DNA from: a phage
Sequence record: PZ738962.1
Strand: one strand, 5' to 3'
Length of the DNA stretch: 64,000 nt
Shown here: one piece after another, positions 2,826 to 40,208 of the stretch
Layout of the letters: every line of letters starts with the position of its first letter
How positions within the stretch are numbered: the stretch's first letter is position 1
Program-made: the position numbers and the translations under genes
The notes under the pieces: generated by a model
What the model was told of the DNA's origin: nothing
The model's input: only the letters and a program-made list of their open reading frames with translations
Database searches by the model: none

Positions 2826-3566
2826 ATGTTTAACAACACTCTTTTTGCTCGCCTTGAATCGCAAAAGGATTATGAGAATACACGACAAACAGAGATTCTC
2901 AATCCTTATGTTAACTTTCACAAATATACAAATACTCAGACGTTAGCCGACGTTATGGTCGCCGAAGCTATTCAGATGCGAGGTGTAGAATTATATTACA
3001 TCCCTCGTGAATTTGTCAAACCAGATATGATCTTTGGTGAGGATGTTCAAAGCAAATTTACTAAAGCATGGAAATTTGCGGCTTATATTAACTCATTTGA
3101 TGGGTATGAAGGAGCGGGTAATTTCTTCTCTAGTTTCGGGTATCAAGCTAATGATGAATTAACTTTTACGGTTAACCCCAACCTATTCAAGCATCAAGTA
3201 GATGATCAAGAGCCAAAATCAGGTGACTTAATTTATATTCCAATGAGTAATGATTTATTTGAAATTAATTACGTTGAGCCATATCAGCCGTTTTTTCAGG
3301 CTGGCAAAAATGCCATGCGTAAAATTATTGCAGAGAAATTCGTGTATAGCGGTGAGGAATTGCGACCAGAATTACAACGCAATGAGGGAATTAATGTTGA
3401 TGAGTTTGCGGATCTGGATCTTGCACCGATCACTAATCTGGACGGGTTAACAGATATCAACCTAGATCAGTACAAAGAAGATAAGCAATTCAGAAGCGAA
3501 GGACAAGATTTTATTGATCCGTTTGATCCTATTAATGGCAAGGGTTCACCTTTCGCCGATTTTTGA
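2826..3566 (+). CDS. 14: neck protein gp14
   Basis: 246 aa; synteny after gene 13; N-terminus LFARLE...NPYVN resembles T4 gp14. Confidence 0.7.
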
Positions 3567-36233: not shown

Positions 36234-36446
36234 TTATAATGCACCATCGAGCAATTGCTCTAAGGTGTATCCTGAATAGTCTTTTTCAATCAGGATATAT
36301 TTTCCTACTCGTTTAATACAACCGCGCATTTCAACGTATTCTGCGTAGTTGATGGTACGAGTTGTTCCATCTTCCAGTAATGCAGTACCGATTTCGTTAA
36401 TGCGGTCATAAGTTACGTCGGTAATGATGATTTCGATGTTAGCCAT
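36234..36446 (-). CDS. hypothetical small protein
   Basis: 70 aa; ATG with Shine-Dalgarno; promoter cassette upstream. Confidence 0.4.
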   Translation of the reverse strand: MANIEIIITDVTYDRINEIGTALLEDGTTRTINYAEYVEMRGCIKRVGKYILIEKDYSGYTLEQLLDGAL

Positions 36447-36482
36447 TTGATACTCCTTAGTAGTTCGTTTCGGTATGGGTGT

Positions 36483-36511
36483 ATTATGATATACACCCTC
36501 TGTTATGTCAA
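36483..36511 (-). promoter_or_regulatory. sigma70-like early promoter (minus strand TTGACA-17-CATAAT)
   Basis: plus strand shows attatg...tgtcaa; sits about 37 nt upstream of the 70 aa gene start. Confidence 0.5.
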
Positions 36512-36517
36512 CAACTT

Positions 36518-36697
36518 TTAGAACATTTTTGAAATCAATTCTGCTTTGATTTCGCAGAGAACATCTAAAGATTTCTCGTCACCCGCTTTTGCTGCTTCTG
36601 CTTGCATTTTTGAAATGGCTTCAATGTCAGTGCAATTATAAGCCGCTTGAACTTTAGCGATTGCGATGATTGCCGATTCGATGGTTAAGTGTTTCAT
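36518..36697 (-). CDS. hypothetical small protein (59 aa, below ORF-track cutoff)
   Basis: hand-translated MKHLTIESAIIAIAKVQ...; ATG preceded by AGGAGAATCAAAC. Confidence 0.35.
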   Translation of the reverse strand: MKHLTIESAIIAIAKVQAAYNCTDIEAISKMQAEAAKAGDEKSLDVLCEIKAELISKMF

Positions 36698-36731
36698 GTT
36701 TGATTCTCCTAGTTCGTTTCGGTATGTGTGT

Positions 36732-36761
36732 ATTATAGGGGATCTCCGATCCCCCTGTCAA
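36732..36761 (-). promoter_or_regulatory. promoter-stem-loop cassette (TTGACA, palindromic GGGGGATCGGAGATCCCC spacer, TATAAT)
   Basis: consensus -35 and -10 hexamers on the minus strand with 18 nt palindromic spacer. Confidence 0.6.
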
Positions 36762-36768
36762 CAACTTT

Positions 36769-37287
36769 TTAGTTATTTTTTAATTGCTCATCTTGCAATA
36801 GGGCAATCACATGCTGGCGATGTTCTTCCGATTGAGGAACACCGAAAAAGTTTGTTTTGTAGAAATACTCTAATCGGTCTTCTCGTGTGCTCTCTTCCAT
36901 CATGATCGCGGGTAGTCCGAGATTTCGGAAACGTCGCTTTTCTGCTGACGTAAAATCACTGTAATACAACATAGAATCATCATTACCAGCAATGCTAAAC
37001 TCATCTTTCATAAAGGAGAATATTGCGTTTAAACGCTGTTTACCGTCCACGATTTCGATCTCATAGCGAGAGCCATCATCAATCTTAGCCATTGCGATAG
37101 CACCAACCGGAAAATCATTAATCAGGTTTTCGATAAACATACGTTTGTTTTCGGTGTCCCATACCAAAGGACGCTGATAATCTGGGTTCATGTTGATATA
37201 GCCATCTTCTAACCACGCCTCATAAACAGAGATGACAAAGTTTTTAGTATTGGTATAGTAACGGCGTTTAGGCGTTAAACGGTTCAT
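36769..37287 (-). CDS. DUF262 / ParB-Srx-like domain protein (stand-alone)
   Basis: ORF-track start is TTG; ATG at 37287 has AGGAGA Shine-Dalgarno and abuts the upstream stop; motifs NPDYQRPLVW and VDGKQRLNAI (DGQQR-like). Confidence 0.55.
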   Translation of the reverse strand: MNRLTPKRRYYTNTKNFVISVYEAWLEDGYINMNPDYQRPLVWDTENKRMFIENLINDFPVGAIAMAKIDDGSRYEIEIVDGKQRLNAIFSFMKDEFSIAGNDDSMLYYSDFTSAEKRRFRNLGLPAIMMEESTREDRLEYFYKTNFFGVPQSEEHRQHVIALLQDEQLKNN

Positions 37288-37288
37288 G

Positions 37289-37621
37289 TTATAGTCTCCT
37301 GAATGGATCATCACGTAAATCAATATCTTTTAAGAACTCATCCCATGAATGTCGGATATTGTTCTTAATTCTCCAGATAAGCGCAGGGATTGAACGCTCT
37401 CCCATCTGGAAGTATGGATCATATGATCCGTATGCCCAATATGCTACTACAATTCCACAATCAGCGCAATAATATTCTATTTCACTTGCTGGCGACCAAA
37501 GTCCATCAATATGATCAGTGATCTTGCTTTCGATGTTATGGCTATGACAATCAGGGCAACGGATGCAATGACCTTGTTTATCGTAATTTGACGTTAGCGA
37601 ATACTTAAACAATCTCATCAT
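37289..37621 (-). CDS. zinc-ribbon protein
   Basis: 110 aa; CIRCPDC...YYCADCG (two CxxC pairs); translationally coupled on both sides. Confidence 0.5.
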   Translation of the reverse strand: MMRLFKYSLTSNYDKQGHCIRCPDCHSHNIESKITDHIDGLWSPASEIEYYCADCGIVVAYWAYGSYDPYFQMGERSIPALIWRIKNNIRHSWDEFLKDIDLRDDPFRRL

Positions 37622-38334
37622 AGATCCTTATTTGCTTCAAATACTGCCTTTGCGAATCCTCGCGGGGTAAGTGACCTGATAGTCTTTGTTTTCGTTCCTT
37701 TCCCGCCTAGCTTAGAATGCTGTTTACTGTACCCTTTATTAATCTGCAACGGTTTCTTTTCTGGCATTATAAAGCCTTGTCCGGTCCATAAGCAAGTCTT
37801 TTTCGGGTACATATCACGGGCGGCGATATACTCAGGAAACGTAGGATGTTTATCATCTTCCGGCAAATAACCGCCATATTCCCACGGATGTAACATGTAA
37901 TCAGGCTTACGCCACATACTAGAGATAACGCTTACAGGATTCTCTATCATGTAGGGAACTCCTAGCCATTCACCCAAATAAGCGGTTATTTTAGCTGCCC
38001 GTACATCATGAACTTGAATCAATGGTCCTTGTTCTCGTTTCTTTCGTTCAAAGTGTGCAGCGCCACTAACAGCTAAATTGGTGCACGGTGGGAATGCAAA
38101 GATAATATCCGGTTTCCCCCATTCAAGGTCCATTGCTCTTTCTAGCCAGTTCAAATCAATCCATGTGTTTACATAGGTAATGTTTGGGTGTTCAAATCTG
38201 GTATTATACTTTTTGTATGTGCCGTGGTCGCCATCGTCAGCATTAAAGCAGATCACCTTATGACCTGCTTTAGCCCATTCTAGCCCCATTATCCCCGATC
38301 CGTCAAAGTTACAGAATATTAATTTTTGTTTCAT
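37618..38334 (-). CDS. minimal C5-cytosine-methyltransferase-like protein (no obvious target-recognition domain)
   Basis: 238 aa; motif I-like FCNFDGSGIMG, motif IV-like IIFAFPPCTNLAVSG (Pro-Cys), motif VI-like YMIENPVSV, motif IX-like RSLTPRGFAKAV; collinear with M.HhaI motif order (recalled). Confidence 0.45.
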   Translation of the reverse strand: MKQKLIFCNFDGSGIMGLEWAKAGHKVICFNADDGDHGTYKKYNTRFEHPNITYVNTWIDLNWLERAMDLEWGKPDIIFAFPPCTNLAVSGAAHFERKKREQGPLIQVHDVRAAKITAYLGEWLGVPYMIENPVSVISSMWRKPDYMLHPWEYGGYLPEDDKHPTFPEYIAARDMYPKKTCLWTGQGFIMPEKKPLQINKGYSKQHSKLGGKGTKTKTIRSLTPRGFAKAVFEANKDL

Positions 38335-38576
38335 ATACGCCCCTTTAATCCAACACAGATTTTAGAAGGTTCTTTGCCGTGCCACATTAAGTAAAGTCCG
38401 TTAATGCGGCCTTGTTTTGTATATGATTCTTTTCTGATCTTCTTATAGTGTCGTGCTTCCTCAACTGATTGTTTAGAATACCAATCATAAAGGAAGAGGC
38501 ACAAAGGCCAACCATTAGCGGCCTTAATGCAGTTATTAAGAAATTCCTTATTGCGTTTAATTAATTTTCTTTTCAC
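38331..38576 (-). CDS. hypothetical protein (GTG start overlapping upstream stop)
   Basis: 81 aa; 4 nt overlap (GTGA) with upstream gene. Confidence 0.35.
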   Translation of the reverse strand: MKRKLIKRNKEFLNNCIKAANGWPLCLFLYDWYSKQSVEEARHYKKIRKESYTKQGRINGLYLMWHGKEPSKICVGLKGRI

Positions 38577-38824
38577 GCTGCCCCCATTGGTTTGATAGTA
38601 ACAGAATCTAAAAGACCTTTGTTAGCCAGTTCGCGGCAAGTTTTCAGATCCGCAACTTCCCAGCCAGCCGCAATCAGGTTATCAATCAGGCTGTTAGCAA
38701 CTTCTTCGCTCATGAAAGAGCACTGTTTGCCGATGGTGTAGCGTACACGCTGTAATTTCAGTTTACGGAAGCCTTTAACGTTCAGGTCTTTAGCGATTTT
38801 CTTTGCGGTTTCGATGTTAGCCAT
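38573..38824 (-). CDS. hypothetical protein, first gene of the five-gene operon
   Basis: 83 aa; ATG with AGGAGAATCAAAC; promoter cassette about 40 nt upstream. Confidence 0.45.
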   Translation of the reverse strand: MANIETAKKIAKDLNVKGFRKLKLQRVRYTIGKQCSFMSEEVANSLIDNLIAAGWEVADLKTCRELANKGLLDSVTIKPMGAA

Positions 38825-38864
38825 TGTTTGATTCTCCTAAGTGGTATCTCGTCTTGATGGTTGT

Positions 38865-38893
38865 ATTGTAGGGGAGTTATCCTCCCCTGTCAA
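38865..38893 (-). promoter_or_regulatory. promoter-stem-loop cassette (TTGACA, GGGGAGGATAACTCCCC, TACAAT)
   Basis: palindromic 17 nt spacer between near-consensus hexamers. Confidence 0.55.
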
Positions 38894-38907
38894 CACTTTT
38901 TATAAAA

Positions 38908-39075
38908 TTATTTGTTAATTTCCGGTGCGTTGCTCGGATAGTAACCTTCTTTAACACCCAGATATTTTGCAACCATCCCTACAATCTTCTGTGCTACTAC
39001 AATGTCAAATTTCAGATAATCTTCGCCGTGGGTTTCAATGATATATGCTTCACATGCTGCTTTAGTCTCGAACAT
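38908..39075 (-). CDS. small protein (55 aa), paralog of 42193..42360
   Basis: hand-translated MFETKAACEAYIIETHGEDYLKFDIVVAQKIVGMVAKYLGVKEGYYPSNAPEINK. Confidence 0.4.
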   Translation of the reverse strand: MFETKAACEAYIIETHGEDYLKFDIVVAQKIVGMVAKYLGVKEGYYPSNAPEINK

Positions 39076-39108
39076 TTTGATTCTCCTATATCTCGTTGGT
39101 ATGTGTGC

Positions 39109-39137
39109 ATTATAGGGGATCTCCCGATCCCCGTCAA
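39109..39137 (-). promoter_or_regulatory. promoter-stem-loop cassette (TTGACG, GGGGATCGGGAGATCCCC, TATAAT)
   Basis: read directly. Confidence 0.55.
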
Positions 39138-39151
39138 CAACTTTTTTAAAA

Positions 39152-39433
39152 TTATTCGTGATTAGTTTCGATATTGTGCATTTTGCACCAGTTTAGCCAA
39201 TCACCCAGATCCTGATAGTTAATGCTTTTATCTGCTGCCATCGTTTTTGTCTTGATACCCATATGTGCGTTATGAGTAAGCATTTTTACAGTGAACTCAA
39301 TTTTATCACCTTTAGCTTTAACATCAACCAGTTTGGTCCACTGGCTACCAGCGCCGCGAATGTTCATACCAACGATGTTTCCGATGTATGCTTCTTTGTT
39401 TTTCAGGATTTCGGTTGCTTTGATGAATTTCAT
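39152..39433 (-). CDS. hypothetical protein
   Basis: 93 aa; Shine-Dalgarno plus ATG; cassette upstream. Confidence 0.45.
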   Translation of the reverse strand: MKFIKATEILKNKEAYIGNIVGMNIRGAGSQWTKLVDVKAKGDKIEFTVKMLTHNAHMGIKTKTMAADKSINYQDLGDWLNWCKMHNIETNHE

Positions 39434-39466
39434 TTTTGATTCTCCAGTTCGTTTCGGTATGGGTGT

Positions 39467-39495
39467 ATTATGCTATGTTCTTACTTTGGTGTCAA
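39467..39495 (-). promoter_or_regulatory. sigma70-like early promoter (TTGACA-17-CATAAT)
   Basis: read directly. Confidence 0.5.
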
Positions 39496-39503
39496 CAACT
39501 TTT

Positions 39504-39773
39504 TTAGATATTTTCAGAAATAAATTTTAAAACTTGACGTAAATGTTTCTCATCTTTGATAGTCGCCGGAAGTTCTTCTTTTACTTCCTGTGCAAGATAG
39601 ATATTTCCGTTCCAAGTGAAAGATCCGTCTTCGTTTACGCGATAGCTGAACATCCACTCGCAATCATTTTCGATTTCATATACACACAGAAGGGTGTAAT
39701 CGTTAAAGCTATTGATTTCAAGGTCGAAGCCGTGACGTTTTGCAAAGTTGGTAGTGGTTTTAGTCAGTGCCAT
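39504..39773 (-). CDS. hypothetical protein
   Basis: 89 aa. Confidence 0.45.
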   Translation of the reverse strand: MALTKTTTNFAKRHGFDLEINSFNDYTLLCVYEIENDCEWMFSYRVNEDGSFTWNGNIYLAQEVKEELPATIKDEKHLRQVLKFISENI

Positions 39774-39813
39774 TGTTTGATTCTCCTAAGTGGTATCTCG
39801 TTTCGATGGGTGT

Positions 39814-39842
39814 ATTATGCTATAGGCGTGATCTGGTGTCAA
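39814..39842 (-). promoter_or_regulatory. sigma70-like early promoter (TTGACA-17-CATAAT)
   Basis: read directly. Confidence 0.5.
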
Positions 39843-39863
39843 CAACTTTTTTTAATTTTTTGG

Positions 39864-39892
39864 AAATAAAAAAGCCGACACTAAGGTCGGCT
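39864..39892 (-). terminator. hairpin agccgac...gtcggct plus T-run (minus strand)
   Basis: read directly; downstream of 39900..40208. Confidence 0.5.
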
Positions 39893-39899
39893 AATAAAA

Positions 39900-40208
39900 T
39901 CATTTAGACAAGTAATCATTCTGTGCAATACGGTCGGCGTATGCTGGTGTTACGTCAATCGCAATCACTTTAACGCGTGCTTTCTTGCGACCTGGGTTTT
40001 CTCGTAACCAGTGCTCATGACCGTGAACATTTTTATACTTTGATGCTTCTTCAAATGTACGGATCGGACCTGGATAATCTGCGTAAAGGATCTCTAGGTC
40101 TTCGGTGATGTAAAAATATACATCATAATTACTGTTCTCTAGTTTAAGCAGAGACTTTCGGAACATTGGGAGATTTTCGCGGGTAAATTCAAAGATATTA
40201 TCTTTCAT
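39900..40208 (-). CDS. H-x-H-W family protein, member A
   Basis: 102 aa; YDVYFYITEDL...HGHEHW...KVIAIDV. Confidence 0.5.
   Translation of the reverse strand: MKDNIFEFTRENLPMFRKSLLKLENSNYDVYFYITEDLEILYADYPGPIRTFEEASKYKNVHGHEHWLRENPGRKKARVKVIAIDVTPAYADRIAQNDYLSK

Follow-up and report, generated by a model that had tools for sequence, protein, structure and literature searches.

The window analysed here, the whole 64,000-nucleotide stretch of record PZ738962.1, comes from a Krischvirus, of the RB49/GEC-3S/JSE group of T4-type coliphages. Between positions 36769 and 38824, it carries on its minus strand a close-packed row of five open reading frames (ORFs), and the third of them encodes a protein of 238 amino acids (aa) that, judging by its sequence, is a member of a large phage family of compact cytosine-C5 DNA methyltransferases. 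It is a new member of a known family, and sister genomes already label it Dcm or DNA methyltransferase; among the five proteins, it is the only one with a well-founded function. An initial annotation had treated the five genes as one system, possibly for DNA modification or anti-restriction. The comparison of loci from other phages speaks differently: the row brings together, within one genus, accessory genes that are independent of each other, and does not represent a conserved modification system. We consider it quite likely that the row is an early unit bounded by early promoter/stem-loop cassettes (PeSLs), in which the Dcm-like methyltransferase is self-sufficient, and a zinc ribbon and a DUF262 protein are the products of separate accessory genes.

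The 238-aa protein matches phrog_757 (‘DNA methyltransferase’) from end to end, with an E-value of 1.5e-89. A metagenome-scale search yields 7305 homologues: the 120 closest homologues listed are 219-259 aa long and, outside Krischvirus, are 55-64% identical to it. A representative library contains about 900 clusters (at 50% identity) with E <= 1e-10, and most of the matches are 210-260 aa long, those outside this range being fragments or fusions. One of the fused members is joined to a Dam-class DNA methyltransferase, another to an HNH_2 domain, and the other eight have no Pfam domain in their extension. A homologue is present in 1525 of 50,697 phage records (about 3%); the carriers include T1-like Drexlerviridae, Dhillonvirus, Jersey-like phages and Vequintavirinae, as well as myoviruses of about 150 kb (e.g. 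Schickermooser) and Klebsiella siphophages of about 48-51 kb (e.g. KP36). Far from being an orphan oddity, the protein belongs to one of the commonest phage methyltransferase families, and to one with a tested homologue.

The peptide motifs quoted in the initial annotation are all present in the translations, and its proposal of a C5-methyltransferase stands. Motif I is formed by F10-G12-S13-G14, an FxGxG pattern that follows strand 1 of the predicted model; the catalytic dyad is P83-C84, motif VI is E131-N132-P133, and downstream of it come R142, K178-K179 and a C-terminal RSLTPRGF helix. In an alignment of 43 members, F10, G12, S13, G14, P82, P83, C84, E131, N132, P133, K178 and R220-S-L are invariant, and R142 and T223/P224 are kept in at least 90% of the sequences. 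The predicted model has the fold of the catalytic domain, and its closest structural relatives are DNMT3A and DNMT3B, which are DNA enzymes, not RNA enzymes. Compared with the sequences of solved structures, neither the single sequence nor the profile gives a significant match.

The annotation had also stated that the protein has no room for a target-recognition domain (TRD), and this we cannot uphold. About 78 residues (143-219), including K178-K179, separate the motif VI/VIII region from the C-terminal IX/X-like helix, and the DNMT3A/B enzymes also have very small TRDs. While the TRD is the variable part in ordinary methyltransferase families, residues 143-219 are among the best conserved of the 43-member alignment. 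Conservation at the position of the TRD suggests one specificity shared across the compact family, and this putative mini-TRD points to a single recognition motif. Which sequence this very large family recognises has never been mapped.

Experimental evidence comes from a relative, the Dcm protein of K42, a phage of the Drexlerviridae that is 95% identical to KarlJaspers Bas06 (bioRxiv 10.1101/2023.08.16.553469). In all K42 mutants that escape retron Ec86, the change lies within a 711-bp dcm gene or immediately upstream of it. When it is the only phage gene expressed in E. coli, dcm triggers the retron and raises the 5-methylcytosine (5mC) content of its multicopy single-stranded DNA (msDNA), as measured by liquid chromatography-mass spectrometry; with C82A/E128A/K175A/K176A, neither the trigger nor the rise in 5mC is seen. 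Mutating CCTGG in the msDNA stem abolishes the defence, and the authors noted that the predicted fold of K42 Dcm is DNMT3A-like (bioRxiv 10.1101/2023.08.16.553469). The orthologue of phage SECphi27 (Drexlerviridae, 711 bp) is 55% identical to the 238-aa protein over its full length (E 4e-91), and its residues C82, E128, K175 and K176, numbered as in K42 Dcm, correspond to C84, E131, K178 and K179. Through the SECphi27 orthologue, which has the gene length and the residue numbering of K42 Dcm, the 238-aa protein falls within an experimentally supported family of DNA C5-methyltransferases; the formation of 5mC on DNA, shown for K42 Dcm, would by analogy apply to it.

The claim that the five genes form a system was confronted with 80 viral methyltransferase loci, extending up to 6 kb on each side where the contig allows, in which all ORFs were searched with iterated profiles of the other four proteins. 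These four genes are found only in the Krischvirus locus: none of the 79 other loci has a homologue of the zinc-ribbon, DUF262, 83-aa or 81-aa protein. Conversely, among 55 viral loci with a short DUF262 gene, a Dcm-like or zinc-ribbon gene is present only in the two Krischvirus contigs, and in none of the remaining 53. Nonagvirus and Felixounavirus have zinc-ribbon homologues without any methyltransferase; the neighbours of other bare DUF262 genes, in RB43 and in the loci labelled L086 and L088, show no CxxC pairs that would indicate a zinc-ribbon partner upstream; and most DUF262-only loci (RB43, KP15, P22-like, K139-like and phiM7) have no methyltransferase nearby. Judging by the record sizes and taxa of tblastn matches, the methyltransferase, the zinc ribbon and DUF262 have different distributions, which meet only in Krischvirus. 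Such a genus-specific assembly is to be expected in a PeSL-rich hyperplastic region.

The last gene of the row encodes a 172-aa protein that matches Pfam family PF03235 (GmrSD_N/DUF262) with an E-value of 3.2e-20 and 73.5 bits, for a cut-off of 33.2. Its three motifs are Y37-Q38-R39..W43, D81-G82-K83-Q84-R85 and N146..G149-V-P-Q-S-E-E-H156; in short relatives of 160-180 aa, YQRxxVW, DGKQR and NxxGVPQSxEH are invariant. The copy in RB49, ORF187c (L089 3042-3560), has a serine at the otherwise invariant Pro151 of the third motif (GVPQS). The best defence matches found with PADLOC are Menshen NsnA (E 6e-21) and PD-T4-2_A (E 4e-12). The family profile matches DndI (PDB 9jfl), BrxU (7p9k) and SspE (6jiv), and the protein alone has no significant match among the sequences of solved structures. 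The AlphaFold2 model is moderately confident (pLDDT 70): a fold search with it gives no match at E < 0.01, the only matches, all weak, being of the ParB/Noc/KorB/BrxU type.

The initial annotation was right about the domain, and wrong in calling it a nicking module: in GmrSD and SspE, DUF262 is a nucleoside triphosphatase (NTPase) or sensor, and the cutting is done by DUF1524 (PMC12065111), which is absent here. In defence proteins, DUF262 is always accompanied by a DNA-binding domain, ParBDB, and in most cases also by a nuclease (PMC12065111). The 172-aa protein consists of the bare ParB-DUF262 domain and has neither a DNA-binding nor a nuclease part. In Pfam, NCBIfam and PADLOC, none of the five proteins matches a nuclease family, and the DUF262 gene has no adjoining nuclease partner, since the zinc ribbon beside it does not qualify as an HNH nuclease. 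Word-index searches recovered no more than 7 relatives for the DUF262 protein and a single one for the zinc ribbon, and it was tblastn against phage records that revealed their real spread. Stand-alone ParB-DUF262 proteins occur widely among phages, none of them has been characterised, and they show a weak tendency to adjoin DNA methyltransferases. In Vibrio phage VPUSM 8, a K139-like, P2-like vibriophage, a 178-aa DUF262-only protein (L105 2839-3375) directly follows the replication-initiation gene, rep; bare DUF262 modules are thus found in temperate phages as well, and there in the context of replication.

What is known of the DNA of these phages restricts what the methyltransferase can do. 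HpaII and NheI both cut the DNA of RB49, a phage with all five genes (PMC4041780), and phage TB34, 98% identical to the window in this region, has no modified nucleoside detectable by high-performance liquid chromatography and mass spectrometry (PMC13390438). Together, these results exclude dense or non-specific methylation, and any methylation in these phages is sparse and site-specific. The window contains 20 CCWGG sites: if all of them were used, about 0.15% of its cytosines would be methylated, and such sparse 5mC would escape the published assays. Krischviruses serve as ‘unmodified DNA’ controls, although an intact C5-methyltransferase gene is part of their genomes.

One close relative departs from this picture: phage SAP is reported to contain hydroxymethylcytosine (hmC) and glucosyl-hmC, its sister TB34 being unmodified (PMC13390438). 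The two phages are 99.96% identical and their five proteins are the same, which rules out these genes as the cause of the modification in SAP. Over the 8.4 kb that were compared, the only substantial difference, apart from five single gaps, is a 79-bp tandem duplication of a PeSL cassette in SAP, directly downstream of the DUF262 gene (window 36687-36775; L005, from SAP, 3095-3211, against L002, from TB34).

The reading that we favour can be spelled out as follows. Host sigma-70 RNA polymerase would start at the promoter upstream of the row and read through the five genes as one PeSL-bounded early transcription unit, in the hyperplastic region of an RB49-like, T4-type coliphage with unmodified cytosine, and ribosomes would move between the first four genes through stop/start overlaps. 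The 238-aa protein would act as a self-sufficient C5-cytosine DNA methyltransferase dependent on S-adenosylmethionine (SAM), with Cys84 as the nucleophile, together with Glu131 and Arg142, and with the short conserved basic region (about 143-219, including Lys178-Lys179) in place of a large TRD. As an early product, it would methylate the replicating phage DNA at a short and infrequent motif, presumably CCWGG-like, and the progeny would be shielded from restriction enzymes of matching specificity, for example of the EcoRII type; an anti-restriction role of the methyltransferase is plausible. The zinc ribbon and the bare ParB-DUF262 gene would have been brought into the cassette by PeSL-mediated shuffling. 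Since the DUF262 protein has three nucleotide-binding motifs but neither a DNA-binding nor a nuclease domain, it is most likely a nucleotide-gated switch or partner protein rather than a nuclease.

Several observations weigh against this reading. The match of the 238-aa protein to PF00145 covers only residues 10-100 and scores 14.4 bits, below the gathering cut-off of 22 (E 0.026), and no NCBIfam model matches the protein: profile support, found for DUF262 above the PF03235 threshold and for the methyltransferase through phrog_757, stays below threshold in Pfam for the latter. Residue 86 is Asn in the Krischvirus enzymes but Asp in at least 90% of the family. No Krischvirus has been shown to carry methylated DNA, and the result obtained with TB34 is a negative one. 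The study of K42 assumed the motif CCWGG and did not map it, and a dcm+ host did not trigger the retron (bioRxiv 10.1101/2023.08.16.553469), so that the phage enzyme may differ from the host Dcm. Moreover, BL21(DE3) natively carries retron Ec86 (bioRxiv 10.1101/2023.08.16.553469), and Krischviruses have been propagated on E. coli B, which is unexpected if their enzyme triggers Ec86 as K42 Dcm does. Site counts in the 64-kb window also bear on the question. CCWGG is depleted about 2.5-3.6-fold, with 20 sites for 50 +/- 6 in shuffled sequences, or 72 under a Markov model. We considered this depletion as a clue to specificity and found it uninformative: dozens of other palindromes are depleted too. 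GAATTC is absent for 21.5 expected, TCCGGA, AAGCTT, GGATCC, ACCGGT, CCGCGG and CAGCTG are likewise absent, each of the seven for 10-22 expected, and GGCC is found 22 times for 66; GATC and CCGG show no depletion. Such broad avoidance of palindromes indicates that site avoidance is a major anti-restriction strategy of this phage.

Some of these points would fit a protein that does not methylate DNA in this phage, being inactive or acting on RNA, a nucleotide or a small molecule: the score below the Pfam threshold, Asn86 in place of a nearly invariant Asp, the absence of detectable modified nucleosides in TB34, and the cutting of RB49 DNA by methylation-sensitive enzymes. We regard this as very unlikely. 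The catalytic and SAM-binding residues are all intact and invariant, the four Krischvirus methyltransferases compared (window, TB34, SAP and RB49) differ at only 3-4 positions, the closest structural matches act on DNA, the orthologue class that is 55% identical methylates DNA, and 5mC at the level calculated above would have gone unnoticed in both assays.

The other two alternatives concern the partners of the methyltransferase. In one of them, the row is a coordinated modification module with the methyltransferase as its core, and DUF262, perhaps together with the zinc ribbon, serves to load, target or activate the enzyme on DNA. In every Krischvirus-type record examined (57 per gene), translational or close coupling links the three genes, and short DUF262-only genes adjoin methyltransferases of other classes: in L088, such a gene overlaps that of an SPPY protein (PF01555 E 1.2e-3, below threshold); in Erwinia phage Hena1, an NPPY methyltransferase lies two genes upstream; in L157 (6001-8847), there is an overlap between the DUF262 gene and the start of a PF01555 methylase gene (E 9.5e-20), and a ParB_N-PF01555 fusion gene comes next, placing two ParB-superfamily modules beside two methylases in one locus; and in L129, the neighbour is a protein with DUF4942 and MTS domains. 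These four loci count against separate accessory genes. They also inspire a broader version, in which bare ParB-DUF262 is a recurrent nucleotide-gated loader or activator of several methyltransferase classes (C5 here, N6/N4-type elsewhere), and DUF262, possibly with the zinc ribbon, controls in Krischvirus where or when the Dcm-like enzyme methylates. There are precedents: a short ParB without DNA-binding domain activates its cognate phage 5mYOX enzyme (PMC13229309), and ParB_N is found fused to methyltransferases. In a crude motif scan, 5 of the 55 DUF262 loci had amino-methyltransferase-like ORFs, against 1 of 79 control loci, but the five represent only about three independent lineages. Given that all 79 methyltransferase loci outside Krischvirus lack both partner genes within 6 kb, that K42 Dcm is active when expressed alone, and that most DUF262-only loci have no methyltransferase at hand, we hold the module to be unlikely, and its broader version to be equally improbable.

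In the other alternative, the DUF262 protein is an anti-defence decoy: it would mimic the sensor or dimerisation domain of GmrSD/BrxU, Menshen NsnA, PD-T4-2 or SspE and poison these systems, and the row would be an anti-defence island, with each gene directed against a different host system. The protein does resemble NsnA and PD-T4-2_A best, it is devoid of the ParBDB and nuclease parts carried by such defence proteins, and its gene is one of the early genes of the hyperplastic accessory region beside alt, where the neighbouring methyltransferase is itself a plausible anti-restriction gene. Against this stand the strictly invariant nucleotide-binding motifs of the short family, which suggest that an enzymatic or nucleotide-gated function was retained, rather than mimicry; the reported lack of modification in Krischvirus DNA, to which GmrSD-type enzymes should pose no threat; and the lack of any experimental or comparative evidence of inhibition. 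We find the decoy quite unlikely, and retain the PeSL-bounded unit with a self-sufficient methyltransferase.

We now turn to the layout of the unit, summarised in Table 1. An ORF check located the five minus-strand ORFs where the initial annotation had placed them, and the promoter at 38865..38893 was confirmed as well. Between 36600 and 39000, the window shares 97-99% identity with 56 phage records. All five proteins match PHROG families with E-values of 5e-34 or better, the same genes are called in sister genomes (BN201_0192-0196 in GEC-3S and ORF187c-190c in RB49), and copies that are 95-100% identical to the 83-aa, 238-aa, 110-aa and 172-aa proteins are found in 57 phage records each (56 at >=95% for the methyltransferase; the 81-aa protein was left out of this search). 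By these sequence comparisons, the five ORFs are real genes. The annotation had them all overlap stop to start, which is true of three of the four junctions (GTGA, ATGA and ATGA); the junction between the zinc ribbon and DUF262 is TAA-C-ATG, without overlap, and the DUF262 gene has its own AGGAG ribosome-binding site. In RB49, ATA replaces the first ATG of the zinc-ribbon gene, so that the second ATG (37618) is probably the true start; the gene would then encode 109 aa, with a 1-nucleotide TGATG overlap.

Table 1. Genes and promoter cassettes of the five-gene unit, in window coordinates
Feature	Position	Strand	Remarks
83-aa ORF	38824-38573	-	First gene; strong AGGAG ribosome-binding site
81-aa basic protein	38576-38331	-	GTG start; GTGA overlap with upstream stop
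238-aa C5-methyltransferase-like protein	38334-37618	-	Compact, Dcm-like
110-aa (probably 109-aa) zinc-ribbon protein	37621-37289	-	Four cysteines
172-aa stand-alone ParB-DUF262 protein	37287-36769	-	Last gene
PeSL-type early sigma-70 promoter	38893-38865	-	-35 TTGACA 38893-38888; -10 TACAAT 38870-38865
Next PeSL cassette	36761-36732	-	12/12 matches; directly after DUF262 gene

The promoter of the unit has 11 of 12 hexamer matches, and its 17-nucleotide spacer is a hairpin, GGGGAG-gataa-CTCCCC. Inside the unit there is no promoter or terminator comparable to this cassette; the next one closes the unit and drives a downstream 59-aa gene. Six near-identical PeSL cassettes, with 11-12 of 12 hexamer matches and about 90 nucleotides of shared flanks, lie within 3.5 kb (36.4-39.9 kb), in the hyperplastic accessory region upstream of alt. 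They fit the PeSL pattern of a strong sigma-70 promoter with an AT-rich upstream tract and a G/C-rich stem-loop, repeated between the ORFans of this region. PeSLs of RB49 and phi1 are strong, functional early promoters combined with terminator stem-loops, and shuffle ORFans in hyperplastic regions (PMC2839356). Each of the six cassettes (36400-39900, minus strand) is followed by a conserved leader, ACACCCATACCGAAACGA...AGGAGAATCAAA, that runs as far as the start codon; in only three of the six does the spacer contain a G/C-rich hairpin.

The 110-aa protein matches phrog_2993 (E 5e-34) and, below threshold, the Pfam family Zn_Ribbon_TF (E 5.6e-4). Among homologues from Nonagvirus, Felixounavirus, and Acinetobacter and Klebsiella phages, the invariant residues are C22, C25, C52, C55, W62-A63-Y64-G65 and P69, with a WAYGSYDP motif: the two CxxC pairs of the initial annotation are thus borne out by four invariant cysteines. 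We also considered that it might be an HNH nuclease, forming with DUF262 a split GmrS/GmrD pair, and rejected this idea: D36-H37 is not conserved and no HNH profile matches. Its predicted nature is that of a four-cysteine zinc ribbon, not of an HNH nuclease.

The 83-aa protein belongs to phrog_14908 (E 5e-59) and, in the phage collection, is found only in the 57 Krischvirus-type records. It has a weak PADLOC match (E 2.6e-5) to positions 722-785 of the 938 of RT_UG35, a defence-related reverse transcriptase profile. The 81-aa protein belongs to phrog_7065 (E 6e-38). In a metagenomic Krischvirus contig, L106 (IMGVR_UViG_3300045988_033703), its gene is cleanly missing and the other four are kept: comparison of L106 4794-4970 with window positions 38334-38559 indicates that the gene was removed almost exactly. 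The 81-aa protein is apparently dispensable.

How does the unit compare with known systems? The closest counterpart of the methyltransferase is K42 Dcm, the retron Ec86/Eco1 trigger of a KarlJaspers-like member of the Drexlerviridae: both belong to the same compact family (236 and 238 aa), with the catalytic Cys and Glu and the Lys-Lys pair at equivalent positions and a DNMT3A-like predicted fold, and the SECphi27 and FritzSarasin Bas04 orthologues are annotated as ‘Dcm-like C5 cytosine methyltransferase’. They differ by phage family, by gene neighbourhood, and by the Asn86 that Krischvirus has for Asp. Canonical C5 enzymes (M.HhaI, M.HaeIII and E. coli Dcm of PF00145, and the catalytic domain of DNMT3A/3B) are more distant, with an identity of only 12-16%; M.HhaI is about 90 aa longer, and the variable TRD of canonical enzymes is replaced in the 238-aa protein by a short basic segment that is conserved throughout the family.

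The DUF262 protein shares with the GmrSD/BrxU type IV restriction enzymes and with SspE the N-terminal DUF262 domain, a ParB/Srx-like NTPase, with its QRxxxW, DGxQR and third motifs. These enzymes also have a ParBDB middle domain and a DUF1524/HNH nuclease, both absent from the 172-aa protein, which is short beside the 587 aa of BrxU (7p9k) and the 771 aa of SspE (6jiv). The likeness to Menshen NsnA and PD-T4-2 protein A is limited to the ParB-DUF262 part of profiles of 360-385 positions, and the unit has no gene resembling NsnB/NsnC or PD-T4-2_B. With the ParB activators of phage thymine dioxygenases (PMC13229309) and the ParB_N-N6_N4 methyltransferase fusions, the protein has in common that it is a short member of the ParB superfamily, without DNA-binding domain, located beside a DNA-modifying enzyme; those are PF02195, not PF03235, proteins, have a C-terminal dimerisation domain, and are functionally linked to their enzymes, as was shown for those pairs. 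Finally, the cassettes have the architecture published for the PeSLs of RB49 and phi1 (PMC2839356, PMC4122927), phages of the same group, and differ from them in nothing material: there, a cassette is followed by a single ORFan, and here, one cassette serves five ORFs.

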